From assembly GCA_937927735.1 (NCBI GenBank), contig CALBRZ010000083.1, positions 544 through 64,543 on the forward strand: 64,000 nucleotides of DNA. The letters run 5' to 3'. The position numbers and the translations under genes are program-made. Positions 8,388-59,500 of the stretch are shown piece by piece. Below the pieces are notes generated by a model. It was not told the origin of the DNA. It worked only from the letters and a program-made list of their open reading frames with translations, and searched no databases. Numbering within the stretch: position 1 is the stretch's first letter; the number at the start of each line of letters is the position of its first letter. This stretch comes from an uncultured Planctomycetales bacterium. GTDB taxonomy: Bacteria > Planctomycetota > Planctomycetia > Pirellulales > S012-138.

Positions 8388-9365
8388 ATGCACGCATTGG
8401 GCACCTTCGCCCACGCTTATCGTTGGGCATTTCGATCCGCGGTGTTGCTGGTTACCGCGGGGCTGCTTGTGGGGTGCGGACTGGAACCGCCGCCACAGCG
8501 TCAAACCTCTACGCAACCAGAAACCCAGCCGGTTTCACACGTACCGCCAGCGGCCCAAACCGGCGAGACTATTCGTATCGCGTCGTTCAACATTCAGGTG
8601 TTTGGCCAGGCCAAGCTCGACCAGCTCGACGTGATGCAGCGGCTGGCGCACATCGTCCGCCAGTTCGACGTGGTCGCCATCCAAGAGATTCGTTCCAAGG
8701 AACAGAACGTCCTGCCGACGTTTCTGCAATTCATCAATGCCGACGGTTCGCGGTACGACTTTGTGATCGGCCCCCGACAGGGACGCACGAGCAGCAAGGA
8801 ACAGTATGCCTTTGTCTATAACTCGGCCACGATCGAATTGATGCCCGACTCGGTATACGTGGTGCCCGATCCCGAGGATTTGTTCCACCGTCCGCCGCTG
8901 GTAGCCGGCTTCCGCGTGCGCGGTCCGCCGAACCCGTTCACGTTCACGCTGATCAACATTCACACTGATCCGGACGAAGCCGACCTGGAAGTGGATGCCC
9001 TGGCTGATGTCTATCTCTCGGTGCTTCAGCAGCCCGGCGCCGACGATGACGTGATCGTGCTGGGCGATTTGAACGTTAGTGATCGCAAGCTGGGCCGGTT
9101 GGGGGCGATCCCTGGCATGATGTGGGCGATCAGCGGCGAGCCGACCAATACGCGGATGACGCAGACCTACGACAATTTACTGTGGCTGCGACAGACGACC
9201 GAGTTCACCGGACGCAGCGGCGTTTATAACCTGATGGACGAATTGGGCCTGACCATGGAGCAGGCCTTGGCGATCTCGGACCACATGCCGGTTTGGGCCG
9301 AGTTCAGCGCGGTCGAGGCTCCGCTGGTGGCGGCCGCGCCAGACCAGCCGCGGCGGCAACGCTAG
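8388..9365 (+). CDS. secreted endonuclease/exonuclease/phosphatase (DNase I-like) lipoprotein
   Basis: Start re-called at the ATG at 8388, after GGGAGGGAG. Lipobox LLVGC. EEP motifs: IASFNIQVFG, VVAIQEI, VLGDLN, SDHMPVWAEF. Confidence 0.8.
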   Translation: MHALGTFAHAYRWAFRSAVLLVTAGLLVGCGLEPPPQRQTSTQPETQPVSHVPPAAQTGETIRIASFNIQVFGQAKLDQLDVMQRLAHIVRQFDVVAIQEIRSKEQNVLPTFLQFINADGSRYDFVIGPRQGRTSSKEQYAFVYNSATIELMPDSVYVVPDPEDLFHRPPLVAGFRVRGPPNPFTFTLINIHTDPDEADLEVDALADVYLSVLQQPGADDDVIVLGDLNVSDRKLGRLGAIPGMMWAISGEPTNTRMTQTYDNLLWLRQTTEFTGRSGVYNLMDELGLTMEQALAISDHMPVWAEFSAVEAPLVAAAPDQPRRQR

Positions 9366-9479
9366 ACGTAATCCTCCCTCAATCTGGCCGGGTATGCATG
9401 GTTTCTGATGGATCGATCGCGGTTGTCAAAACCGCGAAATTGACCTTGCCATTTCGTACACGCCAGAGAATGATGACTT

Positions 9480-9743
9480 CAGTGGGTCGTGCGAGACGCG
9501 GCACGACGGACTAGAGGCTGCGAGGTGGCTGGGTGGCTCCCGGTCGAAGCGGCGGGTTCTAGTGAAAGGAGGTGATCAGTGTTATCTGACTGTACGAGCC
9601 ATGTAGGTGGTTCCGCCTGATGACAGTCGGCGGGCTGTCTCCTAAACCAGGCAGCCATCACCACTCGTAGGATCACTTCCGATCAAAACTACGAGTCAAA
9701 CGGGCCCGGTCCTCTGCACGCACAGGGGGCCGGGTTCTTTTTT
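9480..9743 (+). ncRNA. candidate orphan structured small RNA / leader-peptide transcript (family unknown)
   Basis: No plausible protein gene lies between 9366 and 9801. Nested helices: 9486-9492/9501-9507, 9510-9515/9558-9563, 9568-9577/9671-9680, 9606-9611/9657-9662. It ends in a canonical intrinsic terminator. The 5' end is not determined. Confidence 0.35.
9705..9743 (+). terminator. rho-independent terminator
   Basis: 12-bp stem CCCGGTCCTCTG / CAGGGGGCCGGG (two G-U pairs), 6-nt loop, followed by TTCTTTTTT. Confidence 0.8.
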
Positions 9744-9801
9744 GCGCTCTGGCGGAGGGGCACGGAACGCCGTGGGTCTGCGACGCGGGCCGAAAAATCA
9801 C

Positions 9802-10470
9802 TCAGATCTGCCCGCTCTTCTTTTGCATGACTTCTGCCACGGCCTGACGTATGGCCGACGCCGACTCTCGCCCAAAGCGTTTCTGGTATCGCCGCATCAG
9901 GGGGTAGCCAAGCCGCGCGAGGAGGTGTCCAGGTTGCGAGAACGCCAGGATGTCGTAGTGGACTTCGCCGTTGGGCAGCATCTCTACCAGGAAGCATTCT
10001 TCGCCCCGGCCGGCATGTCCCGGCAACGTACCGTAGGCAAAGCCGAATCGTCGCTTTGTCCCGGTGTCCTCGTCGATTACGTAGACGATCCGGCACGGAT
10101 TGACCCACCATAAACCGGCGGCTTTGGCGACGATGGCCACGACGGTGCCGGGCACAAGGGGCGCATCTGCTGGCGCAATGGTCAACCATGAAAGGCCAAA
10201 CTGCCGCCAACCACGGAGCGCGTCGCATGCGGCGGCGAACACGGCTTCGCCTTGCCCGAGCAGGCAGCGAGTGTGATCGACGCGGTAGCCTTGTGGCGGC
10301 TGCGTGGCCGTGGCTCCGATGGCCTCGTAGGTGAAGGTCCGTCGCTGCTGCCGCGCGAGCCATTGGGCGACTTGCCCGGGCGATGGTTGGCGGAGCGACG
10401 GCAGGGCGTCCTGCCAACCGACGCCGCAAACGTGAGGGCGGGGATCGTGCTGGGGATGCTCGTGAGACAT
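9802..10470 (-). CDS. DUF1990 family protein
   Basis: By-eye match to the DUF1990 pattern (FTYEAIGAT, GLWWVNPCRIVYV, FGFAYGTLPGHAGRGEECF). The exact start is uncertain. Confidence 0.75.
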   Translation of the reverse strand: MSHEHPQHDPRPHVCGVGWQDALPSLRQPSPGQVAQWLARQQRRTFTYEAIGATATQPPQGYRVDHTRCLLGQGEAVFAAACDALRGWRQFGLSWLTIAPADAPLVPGTVVAIVAKAAGLWWVNPCRIVYVIDEDTGTKRRFGFAYGTLPGHAGRGEECFLVEMLPNGEVHYDILAFSQPGHLLARLGYPLMRRYQKRFGRESASAIRQAVAEVMQKKSGQI

Positions 10471-10505
10471 GCTCGTGATGATGCGACGCGGCCAAGGTTC
10501 CGCGC

Positions 10506-10554
10506 AAAAATTTAGGCCGACTCCAGCCCGCCATGATAGCGGGCGAGTCGGCCT
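10506..10554 (-). terminator. rho-independent terminator of the histone-like gene
   Basis: On the minus strand, a 10-bp stem AGGCCGACTC/GAGTCGGCCT with an inner hairpin, followed by AAATTTTTG. Lies 60 nt after the stop at 10614. Confidence 0.7.
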
Positions 10555-10613
10555 CTCTCGCTGTATCGTGTCATGCGGCCGCAGAGCGGGCGGCCGAAGG
10601 GTTCCGCCTAAAG

Positions 10614-10886
10614 TTACTTGCTGGCGGTCTTCTTGGCGGCCGGCTTCTTAGCGGCCGGAGCCTTCTTGGCAGCGGAGGCCTTGGCCTTGGGCGAAGCCTT
10701 CGGCTTGGCGGCCTTGGCTGCCTTGGTCGCGGTGGTCTTGGCCGCAGCCTTCTTGGGCGAGGCCTTCGCCTTGGTGGCGGCCGGCTTGGCAGCCTTGGCC
10801 GGAGCCTTCTTGGCGGTCGAGGCCTTTGCCTTGGGCGAAGCCTTGGGCTTTTCAGCCTTGGCCGGCGACTTCTTCGCTGTGGGCAT
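10614..10886 (-). CDS. histone H1-like, Lys/Ala/Pro-rich nucleoid protein
   Basis: Start re-called at MPTAKKSPAKA (ATG at 10886, AGGAGC 6 nt upstream). 90 aa, almost entirely K/A/P/S/T. Internal duplication: KPKASPKAKASTAKKAPAKAAKPAA versus KPKASPKAKASAAKKAPAAKKPAA. Confidence 0.8.
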   Translation of the reverse strand: MPTAKKSPAKAEKPKASPKAKASTAKKAPAKAAKPAATKAKASPKKAAAKTTATKAAKAAKPKASPKAKASAAKKAPAAKKPAAKKTASK

Positions 10887-11996
10887 TCTATCGCTCCTGA
10901 AGATGACGCCCCGAACTCCAAAGTCCTCTTCCTCAGGGCGTCCAGCGGGAAGAGGTTTCCGCCGTACAGGTGGCGGATGGTTTCGTCCGTGCTTGTTCAC
11001 CCAGGCCCGCAGGTCTAGGTGTTTGATGCCCTAACTGGCGGCAGGCAAATGCGAGGCGCGGTTATCAACCCGCAAGAAGCTTTGCTTGCCGAGTGATCGT
11101 ATCAACCGTGTATCCGTACTCCGTGCTTGAGGCACGCGTGGTTGCAAAGCCCAAGGAGTCAGCCAGAAATCGGGGAACACCTGCCAGGTGCACTGCGGCT
11201 CGCCTTCCTCCGCGGCCGGAGCAACCAGCCAAGGCGGGTTCCTCATATCATGCCGGCCGTTCGCCATGGGGGGCCCTGTCTTGCCATGGGGGCGTGTCCC
11301 GGGCCCGGCCGATTTCTGTCTTATTTCAGAGGAGCGTGTTCCTTGTAGGGGGCGGCGATGCGAGCTCGAAGCATGGGGCGTTTCAAGAGAAGGAAGCCGC
11401 CGGCCACGACGACTTCAGATCACTGATCATGACTCCCATGTCTGCGAGTGGTCCGTCCTCCATGCCGCCCAAGGTTATTGACGTTCGCGCGACCGTCGCC
11501 ACCTTGGATTGTGCCACCCGGTTGGCCTGTGGAGAGCTCACCAAAGCGGCGCTTCCGGCGAGGGCTGCGTAGGTATCACTAATAACCTTCGCCCGTTGCG
11601 CCAAATTGAAGCAACTTAACCGCACTTACGTCAAGGCGGATCGGAACATTCTGGTCAAGTTCTACAACTTTTTTTGCTCATGACATGGTTAGAGGCCCTC
11701 ATACCAACCGCTAACGTAGGCGCGGGTCGGTTCAACTGCTGATTTGACAACCGCGCCGCGACCTTCATCGTCGCGCGCTAAACCTCCTTGTGGCGGACGG
11801 CGGGCAGCGTTCCACGTTAAATGCTCCCGTTCGCAAGGTGCGGGGACGCGGCCGCGTGGTGCTGTAGCGCCGGTCAAACGTGTAATGGCCGCGCGACGGT
11901 TGGTAGACTGGTACGCTGTCCGCCGCCGGGGATGGTTGGCTCGTTGGACCTGCCGCGGCGCGGCCTCAAAAAATGTGAGCAGTCGGGTGCCCCACT

Positions 11997-56578: not shown

Positions 56579-59500
56579 ATGCCTGCTACAGAACAAACTT
56601 GGCGCGACATCAAGAAAGTCCACCTGTTCTTTGGAATTTCCTCCGTGGCCATGCTGGCCGCCACGGTGTGGATGATCGCTGACGACCATAACCGCGAGTG
56701 GAAGACCTACCAGGAGCAGTATTACGGCCAGTTGGAAGTCTGGACGCTCCAGTCGCGGATCTACGAACAACTGGCGGGTGATTACGTCACCGGTGAGGAA
56801 GTGCGCGAACACGTCGTGCGCGAGGTGAGCGCGCAGCCGCCCGAGCCCGCTTTCGGCAAGCTGTTCATGCTGTACGTGGCGCAGCGCGCGCAACCTCGCG
56901 ATGGCGAAGCCGTGGAACTGGTCAGCTTCAAGGCGAACGCCGATGCGCGGGGCAAGCTGCCCGAGGCGGGCGCCGCCGAGGAACGTTTTTACCAGGTGAA
57001 CGAAGCGGCCCTGGCCGCGGCGGCCCTGTACGACCAGTTGGCTCAGCTTTCGGTCAGTTTGCAGATCGATCGGGCGACCCTCGAACGCGTTACGGATCCG
57101 CAGCGCAAGAAGGTGTTGCAGGGTCAGATCCAGGCCGCCGAAAAGCGGCTGGAAATCGTCAACCAGCAGGTGACCGAGCAGCTGGCTTCACTGCGGCCGC
57201 AGATCGATCAGACACTCACCCACTACTGGAAGAACGTCCCCGGCGACACACAGCAGTTGCTCGCCGCGATTGATTCGTCGCTGAATGCCGCGGTGGAAGC
57301 GCCATCGCCCGAACGCCGAGCGCAGTTCGTGCGCGAGCTTGAGGCCGTGATCAAACAGGCCTTGTTTCGCGAAGAGGTGCTGCAGCGCGATCTGAAGTTC
57401 CGCCGGGCTGACCTGGACGAGGCCCGCAGCGCATTCAACCTGGCCTTCGGCAACGACGCCCCGGCCGCCGAGTTGCGTGAGTTGCAGGCCAACGTCGACG
57501 CCATCAGCGCCGAGGTCAACGATCTGAACAGCCGGTACGAGTCGGCCAAAACCTATCGCGAACGGCTGGAACGTGCCCGCAACGCGGTCAACGCGCCGGT
57601 GGGCTATGCGGAGCAGAACCTCGAGCGGTATCGCATGGACATGAACCGGCTGGAGGAGCAGTTGGCCAAGAGCCGGCCCAATGTCGGCAAGAAGCTGCTC
57701 AACATGCCGATTCTGGACGCCTTCAGCAAGGAAGGCGACATCAAGGTGCGGCAGATCTGGCTGCCGGATCTGACGATCGACTTCAACTTCCAGGACGTGG
57801 CCCGGTTCGACCGCTGCATGACCTGCCACGTGGGCATCGAGAAGACGGCGCCCGGCTCGGCTGTTGCCGCCGGTTATCCGCATGAGCACGTGCTGGATGG
57901 CGTGCAGCTCAAGACGCCGGCCGAACCGCCAACCTTGGACAGCGGGCAAGAAGGCGATGAAACGGCCGATGCCACGATCATCATTCCCAGCGAGCTGTCC
58001 AACGAGCAACAGAATCGCCTGTTGCTCCAGGCGTACGGCTTCCGATTGGCCGATCGCGGCGTGTTCAATGCCAACGATGCGACCATCGAGTTTGTGATGG
58101 ATCGCAGCTTTGCTGCCGACGCGCTGTTGCAACGCGGCGACGTGCTGGTGGCGATCGGCGGCAAGGACGTGTGGTCGCGTCAGGACGCCGTCGACCTGCT
58201 GCTGGGCGTGGTCAAGTGGGGCGAGCCACTGGAACTGAAGGTCCGCCGCGGCGTCCCGCATCCCTACAGCACGCACCCGCGGTTCGAGCTGTTCGGGGCT
58301 TCGACCAGTCCTCACCCGTTTGCCACGGTAGGCTGCACAATTTGCCACGATGGCCAGGGTAGCGCCACGGCGTTCAAGTGGGCCTCGCACTCGCCCAACT
58401 CGGTCGAACAGCTCCAGCAATGGACCAAGAAGTACGGCTGGTTCTACAACCACCACTGGATCTTTCCGATGATGCCCAAGCGGTTCTCGGAAAGCCTATG
58501 CCTCAAGTGCCATCACGACGTGGTGGAGTTGTTGCCCAGCGAGCGGTTCCCCGAGCCGCCGGCACCCAAGCTGATGCAGGGCTACAACCTGGTTCGCGAG
58601 TACGGCTGCTTCGGCTGCCACGAGATCAAGGGCTATGACAGCCCCACGCGGAGCATCGGTCCCGACATGCGGCTGGAGCCTGGCTACACACCCGCGGCTC
58701 TGGCCCTGTATGCCGATCCGGAACTCTATCGCAATGAAACCTACCGTCGCGATCATCCCGAGAGCTACGAGCAGCGCCTCCAGCAACTGTTCGGTCCCGG
58801 CGTGACCGTGGGCCAGGACGGCAAGCCGGTGTACAAGCCGGACGCGGTTCCGCAAGGCTTCTCGGCTGAGGAAGCCAACGCGGGCTTGGCGAAGTTCACC
58901 CAGAATCTGCAAGATCTGGCCGGACGCGTGGTGCGCGATCCATCGAACGATACCGCACGGCGCCGGCTGGTGCAGCTTCTGAAAGAGGACGAAGCCCGGG
59001 CCAAGAACGCCATTTCGCCCGAGCCGGCTTACCTCAGCAGCCAGCATCATCGCCTGGCGTTGGTGTTGGCCGACGTTGAGGTGCCCGGCAAGATGCGCCC
59101 GGTCGGCCCGAGCCTCCGCTATGTCTCCAGCAAGCTCTCCAAGGAGTTTGTCTACAACTGGATTCGCAATCCGCGCGAGTACCAGCCCAAGACGCGGATG
59201 CCGCGGTTTTTCGGTCTGTATGACCACCTGCTCTCCGAAGAGAAGGAAGAGGGCGAGGCCTACGGCGAAACGCTCCAGGAGCCGTACCACACCGAGAAGC
59301 TGGAGCAGATCGAGATTCGGGCGATCACCGAGTATCTGCTGACCTCCAGCCAGCCGTTCATCCATGCGACTAAGCCGGCCGAGGTGACCGAGGCTCCGGA
59401 TGCGGAACGCGGCAAGAACTTCTTTGCCGATCGCGGCTGCCTGGCCTGCCACCAGCACAGCGAGTTTCCGGATCAAGAGCTGACGGCCGACCAGGGGCCG

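Follow-up and report, generated by a model that had tools for sequence, protein, structure and literature searches.

The 64-kb window analyzed here (64,000 nucleotides (nt) of contig CALBRZ010000083.1 from an uncultured Planctomycetales bacterium) contains at positions 9480-9743, plus strand, what is probably a stand-alone planctomycete small RNA gene that belongs functionally to the extended Shine-Dalgarno (SD) class of small mRNAs represented by rreB and rreR. The RNA combines a 14-nt complement of the canonical 16S rRNA 3’ tail, a GTG start codon 1 nt behind it, a 13-codon open reading frame (ORF) and an intrinsic terminator. It departs from a strict rre RNA in the length of that complement, which falls short of 16 nt, in its failure to match Rfam models, and in its phylum, its overall length, its long leader and a 3’ hairpin that bears a look-alike of the anti-Shine-Dalgarno sequence. 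Because of its anatomy, its pairing energetics and the published experiments on rreB, we infer an rre-type mechanism: by analogy, the RNA would bind the 30S subunit, be weakly translated and have a stability that depends on its start codon.

Relation to the rre class

In the rreB and rreR RNAs, a stretch of 16-17 nt is perfectly complementary to the 16S 3’ end, and its last G is the first base of a GTG start codon (Hahn et al., RNA Biol 2017, PMC5711450). The rreB RNA of the Bradyrhizobiaceae is 165 nt long and encodes 14 residues, rreR of the Rhodobacterales encodes 18, and the class has been reported only from four alphaproteobacterial orders (PMC5711450). rreB binds 30S subunits tightly and co-sediments with them, which requires the 5’ extension of the SD; its translation is weak owing to the long SD and the GTG start, and replacing the start codon stabilizes the RNA (PMC5711450). 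The 5’ part of the rre SD is a single-stranded seed and the remainder lies in a helix, the encoded peptides are conserved within clades, and overproduction of rreB has no effect on growth; the authors left the function of the class unexplained (PMC5711450). A literature search found no later functional work on rre, and searches with sequence strings returned only 16S primers and oligonucleotides.

The window RNA shares with this class the sequence GAAAGGAGGUGAU(C)CAGUG, in which a long complement of the 16S tail leads to a GUG start. At the DNA level the hallmark reads GAAAGGAGGTGAT(C)CAGTG, with GTG as the start codon, and the window copy corresponds to the rre ‘17c-region’ minus one C. The CC and C-less forms interchange among close relatives, since one planctomycete-type family (C, below) is without the C and the nearby Phycisphaerales locus L095 has CC. 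Like rreB and rreR, the window RNA is predicted to be stand-alone, with a promoter-like site and a terminator of its own, and has a very short ORF (13 codons, compared with the published 14 and 18), which precedes the terminator. An SD with an open 5’ edge and a helical remainder (predicted in the window RNA) is another common trait, and both are strongly conserved inside a clade, with peptides unrelated across clades and no fixed genomic context. The earlier note on this DNA had called the transcript an orphan, a label that does not hold for an RNA with the rreB/rreR hallmark, a motif also present in the Rfam families CC2171 and Ms_IGR-5. Of the roles the note had proposed, a small-peptide RNA with a partly sequestered SD would match published rre behavior, whereas simple ribosome titration is made less likely by the finding that overproduced, ribosome-bound rreB left growth unchanged (PMC5711450).

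Anatomy of the RNA gene

The exact complement that the earlier note had placed at 9565-9577 (AAAGGAGGTGATC) is correctly located and occurs once in the window, and the addition of G9564 makes it a 14-nt complement of the canonical tail ...GAUCACCUCCUUUC. By simple arithmetic, such an exact 13-mer is expected about 0.002 times by chance in 2 x 64 kb. When every 17-mer in the 64 kb was scanned, this SD was the strongest 16S-tail site, at -26.4 kcal/mol versus -19.7 for the runner-up at 59237 (minus strand), which lies antisense within a cytochrome c gene and was dismissed as chance. Likely gene starts in the window have a median SD strength of -5.0 versus -4.6 for random positions, a comparison in which the start assignment is crude but which agrees with the note’s remark that most genes here have a weak SD or none.

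The predicted fold is specific to the plus strand, where it reaches -125.8 kcal/mol with a z-score of -5.0 that none of 200 shuffles equaled; the minus strand scores -0.9. The 13-codon ORF from GTG 9579 to TGA 9618-9620, the anti-SD look-alike at 9670-9680 (GGATCACTTCC in DNA) and the two 5’ helices are all as the note described them, the helices agreeing exactly with the minimum free energy (MFE) fold. Its clean terminator is likewise present, with a 15-pair stem at 9702-9737 followed by TTTTTT. The single long irregular hairpin proposed for 9606-9662 is replaced in the MFE fold by three short hairpins inside a junction closed by GGUGAU (9571-9576) and AUCACC (9657-9662). The third of these is the conserved GGCUG...CAGCC, with a loop that differs among relatives. 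The GTG start codon lies within the helix CAGU:ACUG (9577-9580 with 9589-9592), and the stop codon of the short ORF (sORF) lies inside the second hairpin, 9614-9632.

A consensus scan predicts the start of transcription at about 9480-9482, just 3’ of the promoter-like site at 9446-9474. The promoter block is 75-91% identical in relatives, compared with 67-71% for the adjoining spacer on its 5’ side, and the stretch between both hexamers varies. Downstream, a DUF1990 gene (9802-10470, minus strand) is convergent here and in all syntenic relatives. The conserved promoter block, the terminator and this convergent neighbor bear out, as a prediction, the note’s discrete structured transcript without a protein gene of its own. 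The coordinates of all parts are collected in Table 1.

Table 1. Predicted parts of the extended Shine-Dalgarno RNA gene and their positions in the 64-kb window
Feature	Positions	Strand	Description	Basis
Promoter block	9436-9479	+	-35 TTGCCA 9446-9451 inside conserved TTGACCTTGCCA; -10 AATGAT 9469-9474; 17-nt spacing	consensus scan
Predicted transcript	9480-9743	+	about 263 nt; rre-like small mRNA/small RNA	strand-specific fold, conservation
Leader hairpin P1	9486-9507	+	GUCGUGC / GCACGAC, A-ACGC loop	MFE fold
Leader hairpin P2	9510-9563	+	long irregular stem abutting the SD	MFE fold
Extended SD	9564-9577	+	GAAAGGAGGUGAUC, 14-nt complement of the 16S 3’ tail	sequence, fold
sORF	9579-9620	+	GTG start, 13 codons (MLSDCTSHVGGSA), TGA 9618-9620	sequence, translation
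Three hairpins	9596-9656	+	9596-9613, 9614-9632, 9633-9656	MFE fold
First internal SD partner	9657-9662	+	AUCACC; pairs with the SD 3’ half (GGUGAU 9571-9576) and closes the junction	MFE fold
Look-alike hairpin	9663-9696	+	ACUCGUAG...CUACGAGU with anti-SD look-alike GGAUCACUUCC (9670-9680); loop ACUUCC 9675-9680	MFE fold
Intrinsic terminator	9702-9743	+	15-bp G+C-rich stem 9702-9737, then TTTTTT / U run	terminator prediction

A second small ORF, at 9620-9670 on the plus strand, begins with an ATG that overlaps the first stop (TGATG) and encodes MTVGGLSPKPGSHHHS in 16 codons. It is open in all members of the window’s own family (A), and in each of L004 and L144 (loci are designated by L numbers throughout) four of the five codon changes are synonymous. 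We do not count it as a gene, its frame being lost in family B.

The wider surroundings agree with the host’s classification: the window encodes a DUF1559 protein that has an N-terminal methylation motif, and among named matches of the DUF1990 protein the best are from Planctomycetota. ARAGORN found no tRNA or tmRNA in the window. The gene at 10614-11000 (minus strand) encodes a Lys/Ala/Pro-rich repeat protein that resembles histone H1 and matches nothing in Pfam; extra BLAST hits in relatives stem from DNA repeats inside the gene (10635-10718 and 10775-10862).

Conservation in syntenic relatives

In five syntenic relatives the RNA is 94.7-98.9% identical to that of the window. In four of the five, the flanking nuclease and DUF1990 genes are 72-87% identical at the DNA level. 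The intergenic spacers are 64-71% identical. The RNA is better conserved than the flanking coding sequences, and the gene is therefore under stronger constraint than its protein-coding neighbors. The 5’ leader (about 100 nt) and the 3’ non-coding part (about 120 nt) match the ORF in conservation, and third-position changes in the ORF are not in excess. Purifying selection acts on the RNA as a whole. The few substitutions are concentrated in hairpin loops, such as CCUAAACC at 9641-9648; others are compensated or one-sided changes in stems. P2 of L004 shows a single U-G to C-G change, and the conserved terminator carries a compensatory change in L144, from GGUCCUCU/AGGGGGCC to GGCCCUCU/AGAGGGCC.

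The exception among the relatives is L005, for which identity with the window reaches 99.6% on the DUF1990 side, 98.9% within the RNA and only 85.7% on the nuclease side. That last value nearly equals the one for L166. Compared with window positions 9036-11121, L005 is a mosaic, which suggests a recombination junction at or beside the RNA gene. Among DUF1990 homologues further out, the P0009 and P0010 loci are not syntenic, and the P0002 and P0005 contigs are too short to judge. Four independent Logan assemblies (L127-L130, with DUF1990 65% identical) all end 69 nt past the DUF1990 stop, and their sequence after DUF1990 is unrelated to the RNA; either synteny has already been lost or the assemblies break there.

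Planctomycete-type families

A metagenome scan with the window’s 18-nt form of the motif returned 52 loci, comprising chance protein-coding starts plus five families, A to E (Table 2). Each of the five shows a promoter-like site, 85-190 nt of structured leader 5’ of the SD, an sORF that starts with GTG, runs for 11-13 codons and is closed by TGA, TAG or TAA, and a terminator. The Phycisphaerales locus L095 (MTNCDCTQGLCA) closely resembles family C. No conserved neighbor genes were found for families A, B, C and E, whose neighbors differ from one to the next.

Table 2. Planctomycete-type families and arfB-linked loci of the extended Shine-Dalgarno class
Group	Loci	Peptide	Codons
Family A (window type)	L144, L152, L166	MLSDCTSHVGGSA	13
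Family B	L137, L171, L143	MKSFCTGHGGEAA/S; MNCFCTGHGGEVS	13
Family C	L139, L154, L173	MTQCDCTGGPRR	12
Family D	L150, L177	MQSGCLRKRWLP	12
Family E	L151, L185, L157	MIGSPKVRPSS	11
arfB-linked, Rhodobacterales type	L006, L008, L013, L018, L022, L038, L051, L063, L067		
arfB-linked, Rhodobacterales type (continued)	L080, L084, L087, L089, L098, L111, L113, L115		

An nhmmer profile of the 95 nt past the GTG of family B, with the motif excluded, gave one significant match in the window, at 9587-9666 (E 3.9e-4). The blocks common to A and B are CUGUAC-GCCAUG-GGUG and GGCGGGCUG...GCAGCC, the latter also found in family D, and the stem base CACUCGU of the 9663-9696 hairpin is common to the window and family B; a GGCAGCCAUCAC core is common to family D and the window’s family. 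A profile of the family B leader did not match the window leader. The two leaders are alike in layout, with an A-ACGC loop on the first hairpin and a long second hairpin, but not in sequence: the first hairpin of family B has an AACGC loop on a stem unlike that of P1, with one compensatory pair within the family, and in the counterpart of P2 both sides have changed in 9 of 18 pairs. The promoter-like site of family B, at the equivalent position, reads TTGATT, 18 nt, TA[CA]A[CA]T, then AGUG.

Family B varies enough for a test of structure, which marks it as a structured RNA: the RNAalifold consensus contains 81 pairs, with 94% of cells paired versus 34-44% when the partners are slid by 1-3 columns, and changes on both sides in 18 pairs versus 2-7 in the slid controls; the test uses only six sequences, and the structure was derived from the same six. 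A pseudoknot between the stop-codon region and the loop of the GGCUG hairpin was considered as a model for this family. The covariation is also accounted for by a nested structure, and the pseudoknot would have loops that look too short. A joint alignment of A and B (MAFFT with RNAalifold) misaligned the leaders and 3’ parts and produced implausible long-range pairs, and only its GGCUG/CAGCC hairpin was used.

Distribution of the motif and its short ORF

The scan of species-representative genomes used the pattern GAAAGGAGGTGAT, an optional base (N{0,1}) and CAGTG, and returned at least 120 loci. The matches listed all have the 19-nt form and are mostly from Alphaproteobacteria; they also include two Phycisphaerales, three Burkholderiales, one Chloroflexi and one Methylomirabilis. 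Nearly all are small intergenic genes of a single plan: promoter, CAAC..GAAAGGAGGTGATCCAGTG, short ORF, terminator. The Burkholderiales (L026, L032, L106), Chloroflexi-type (L056, L156) and Methylomirabilis (L081) loci follow this plan, with a promoter, GAAAGGAGGTGAT[CT]CAGTG, an sORF of 11-31 codons and a terminator. Two matches, L099 from a ‘Parcubacteria group’ metagenome-assembled genome (MAG) and L092 from a ‘Hydrogenophaga’ MAG, are typical alphaproteobacterial CC2171-type RNAs (TCTCATTGTC...GACAATGG), and these contigs may be mis-binned.

Among 159 distinct motif loci that have an in-frame stop, 149 reach it within 32 codons of the GTG, compared with 92 and 102 in the two control frames. 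The 10th to 90th percentiles of sORF length are 12-26 codons, whereas length distributions in the control frames are very broad, and the stops in the loci listed are divided among TGA (62), TAG (52) and TAA (35). Because of the excess over the control frames, we regard a short ORF of constrained length, no less than the SD, as a hallmark of the class. The 13 codons of the window RNA fit this pattern.

Comparison with Rfam families

The earlier note had proposed a covariance-model search as a check, and at the gathering threshold a scan of the whole window assigned the region, like the rest of the window, to no known family; families A to E matched none either. Two Rfam families are relevant nonetheless. 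CC2171 is a small RNA (sRNA) of Caulobacter, the expression of which was validated by Northern blot in Methylorubrum (bioRxiv 10.1101/2022.01.24.477521). Its consensus begins cAAcaAucGAAAGGAGGUGAUCCAGUG and continues with a closing helix and the terminator; CC2171-type sORFs are 21-26 codons long with no long leader, compared with 13 codons behind a leader in the window. Ms_IGR-5, an sRNA of Actinobacteria, has a consensus that starts ACACAaGGAAGGAgGugGuCc, a long SD-like complement of the 16S tail with its 3’ half paired internally, and its downstream architecture differs from that of the window RNA. A link between Ms_IGR-5 and rre is our own reading of the printed Rfam consensus and is proposed as such.

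Motif copies from Caulobacter, Brevundimonas and Bosea (three loci) score as CC2171 at 88-120 bits, and the Methylomirabilis locus L081 scores as Ms_IGR-5 (RF02471) at 67.7 bits. Two Bradyrhizobium loci of the rreB type (L075 and L145, beside a tRNA gene) match no Rfam 15 family at the gathering threshold. CC2171, Ms_IGR-5, rreB and rreR may be one class under several names.

Sequestration of the Shine-Dalgarno sequence

In the MFE fold, GAAAGGA (9564-9570) is unpaired, and GGUGAU within GGUGAUCAGU is paired. Predicted unpaired probabilities show a like polarity in most homologues, with the 5’ GAAA open and the 3’ part paired. The extended SD forms a duplex of -26.1 kcal/mol with the 16S tail, compared with -11.6 for a canonical 8-nt SD, and its internal alternatives are weaker, at -17.3 with the look-alike and -8.6 with AUCACC. 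Because the tail duplex exceeds both, we expect from these modeled energies that the 16S tail should win over the internal partners once the seed has engaged.

The pairing between SD and look-alike that the earlier note had put forward is real and competitive. In the window, however, it belongs to an alternative fold, in which GGAGGUGAUC pairs with 9670-9680 at -122.9 versus -125.8 kcal/mol for the MFE fold, a gap of 2.9 kcal/mol. The same pairing is the MFE fold in L004 and L144, where AUCACC is replaced by ACCAUCACU and the AUCAC complement is kept, shifted by 2 nt. The look-alike is invariant in family A but absent from families B to E, where only the basal stem CACUCGU...ACGAGUG of the corresponding hairpin is retained and the apical part, which includes the mimic, differs. 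Because these sister families do without it, the look-alike does not form the core of the device; it is a lineage-specific elaboration, one way to sequester the SD. The rreR RNAs of Rhodobacterales have an anti-SD-like closing strand of their own, C[AG][CU]CUCCUU, about 115 nt downstream, and an SD that is partly sequestered appears to be a recurring feature of these RNAs.

Association with arfB

In 17 of the Rhodobacterales-type loci listed (Table 2), the ribosome rescue gene arfB, recognized by its GGQ motif and PF00472, lies on the same strand directly past the RNA terminator. The same arrangement is found in family D and its relatives (L150, L177, L189, L190), with a gap of 55-60 nt. The ArfB proteins of two family D relatives are 82-84% identical, and the best named ArfB match is from Phycisphaerae. 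When downstream ORFs were clustered, arfB formed the only sizeable group. A more distant arfB gene of Phycisphaerae is without the RNA, and the 64-kb window encodes no arfB-like GGQ protein. This adjacency suggests a functional link between the extended-SD class and ribosome rescue.

Rescue-factor genes are known to report rescue capacity through their own expression: arfA of E. coli and brfA of B. subtilis do so via non-stop mRNAs, which arise by cleavage or termination within the gene. Their likeness to the arfB-linked RNAs is one of functional analogy only, in that a short translated element would lie 5’ of a rescue gene and a trapped ribosome could be the signal; the window copy, unlike them, is not linked to any rescue gene. 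A literature search found no description of an arfB leader. Hahn et al. speculated that a ribosome trapped on rre might need rescue, and arfB is not mentioned there (PMC5711450).

At two Bosea loci (L027 and L029), a 772-residue ORF follows a CC2171-type RNA by about 290 nt on the same strand. By eye, its N-terminus looks like that of RNase R; if it is this enzyme, these loci would offer a further neighbor concerned with RNA and ribosome quality control, in one genus only.

Weighing the explanations

Several observations weigh against placing the window RNA in the rre class. Its complement is 14 nt, compared with the 16-17 nt that define rre, with an A as the next base where the 17c-region has C, and even that figure assumes the canonical 16S tail, the 16S 3’ end of the host lying outside the window. 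The SD is about 85 nt from the 5’ end, behind a two-hairpin leader, compared with about 10 nt in rreB, and at about 263 nt the RNA is some 100 nt longer than rreB at 165. The best sub-threshold Rfam match in 9300-9850 is CC2171 (RF01867), with 15.7 bits compared with a gathering score of 75 (E 0.46), and it aligns only over the SD/GUG stretch (GAAAGGAGGUGAU-CAGUG) and the terminal hairpin; the other matches of this E-value scan are sub-threshold noise, and Ms_IGR-5 (gathering score 45 bits) does not match this region even at E <= 10. Similarity to the alphaproteobacterial rre RNAs is limited to the SD/GTG motif, and common descent and convergence are therefore indistinguishable. The homologues were retrieved by that motif, so its presence in them is not independent evidence. 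Of the conservation and covariation that the earlier note had named as a check, the first is strong, but family A is nearly invariant, and helices with almost no variation lend little covariation support to the window structure. The conserved CUGUAC (Cys-Thr codons) is equally explained by pairing with CAGU(G). Further differences are that the complement ends 1 nt before GTG 9579 without overlapping it, in a geometry that is otherwise retained, with an SD-core-to-start distance of 6 nt versus 7 in rre, that the RNA has the extra 3’ hairpin with the anti-SD look-alike, and that the host belongs to Planctomycetota and the published rre to Alphaproteobacteria.

The strongest competing idea, which we nonetheless consider unlikely, is that the gene serves to make a small protein, with the 13-residue peptide MLSDCTSHVGGSA as the effector and the RNA structure merely stabilizing the message or tuning its yield. 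That the reading frame itself matters is shown by its constrained length, by stop codons that replace one another and by some conservative replacements: the ORF stays at 11-13 codons across the planctomycete families as stop codons interchange, and in L163, where the TAG is lost, the next codon, TGA, ends the ORF at 14 codons. Families A and B share M, S3, C5, T6, H8, G10 and A13 despite different Thr and Ala codons (ACG/ACT, GCC/GCA), family D contains a K to R replacement that takes a two-base change, and conservation of peptides within clades is documented for rre as well (PMC5711450). Against a peptide effector, conservation of the whole 263 nt, leader and 3’ part included, equals that of the ORF, the peptides are unrelated among family E, L024, family D and the alpha- and betaproteobacterial versions, and the conserved UGUAC has a pairing partner in the start-codon region as well. 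The RreB and RreR peptides, made synthetically, were unstructured, and overproduction was without phenotype (PMC5711450). We give still less weight to a trans-acting sRNA that would pair with target ribosome binding sites through the loop CACUUCC (9674-9680) or another exposed loop, its internal SD being self-inhibitory. The C-rich loops of other sRNAs do pair in this way, and the look-alike is displayed in a hairpin loop of the MFE fold and is invariant in family A. That loop is absent from families B to E, however, in which the SD, the GTG and the sORF are universal, and an SD strength of window genes no better than random would leave few targets; the property of the class that has been shown by experiment is ribosome binding (PMC5711450).

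The position of arfB past the RNA terminator on the same strand, in the 17 Rhodobacterales-type loci listed and in family D and its relatives, is what one would expect if the RNA acted in cis, as a leader or attenuator whose short ORF is translated to control the gene that follows. In the window, however, the next gene, DUF1990, is convergent, a 15-bp terminator ends the RNA with no co-oriented gene after it, no arfB-like protein is encoded within the 64 kb, and neighbors differ among families A, B, C and E. Because of the gene orientation such a role is excluded at this locus, and we hold it to be highly improbable as an account of the window RNA. We think equally little of a decoy for the 16S 3’ end, in which GGAUCACUUCC in the CGUAGG...hairpin would mimic helix 45 and the tail and titrate an enzyme or toxin that acts on that end. 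The mimic differs from GGAUCACCUCC by one mismatch and, like its 16S counterpart, follows CGUAGG, but it is specific to family A, gives no role to the universal SD, GTG and sORF, and has no candidate partner gene linked to it.

Proposed mechanism and implications

For an extended-SD RNA of the rre type, the parts listed in Table 1 suggest the following course of events. Transcription would run from the sigma-70-like promoter, starting near 9480 and ending at the terminator, and P1 and P2 would form a stable 5’ leader. Pairing with the 16S 3’ tail would be seeded by GAAAGGA, the single-stranded 5’ edge of the SD, and completion of the 14-bp duplex (about -26 kcal/mol) would displace AUCACC or the look-alike, whichever is paired, and thereby place GUG 9579 in the P site of the 30S subunit. 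With so long an SD helix and a GUG start, the ribosome would clear and translate the structured 13-codon ORF inefficiently, so that the RNA would stay on the ribosome throughout its life, with a turnover dependent on that ribosome. As to purpose, our preferred guess is a ribosome-coupled regulatory or sensor RNA, for which the tiny peptide is secondary.

It is tempting to speculate further, in a direction that we regard as a long shot rather than an expectation, that the extended-SD RNAs are ancient, multi-phylum ribosome traps tied to rescue. The over-long SD would tether the ribosome and keep it from clearing the ORF of 11-26 codons, and the defined stalled complex that results would need rescue or release capacity for its resolution. 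The arfB-linked copies, in Rhodobacterales and in one Phycisphaerae-like lineage, would then be sensors and leaders that set arfB expression, and stand-alone copies would report or buffer the same signal. The window RNA would add a two-partner anti-SD switch that gates the trap.

Few bacterial RNAs are known to use an abnormally long SD for binding to the ribosome, and the rre RNAs are among them. Our analyses place the design beyond the Alphaproteobacteria, in Planctomycetota, where use of the SD appears to be low, and the motif is also found in Burkholderiales, Chloroflexi, Methylomirabilis and the Ms_IGR-5 consensus. Given this wide distribution, the design is either ancient or repeatedly invented, and several entities with separate names in Rfam and in the literature may form a single class. 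In the planctomycete variant, two competing internal partners of the SD provide a possible built-in switch. Moreover, the adjacency of arfB in two unrelated lineages offers a first testable hint at the function of the class.

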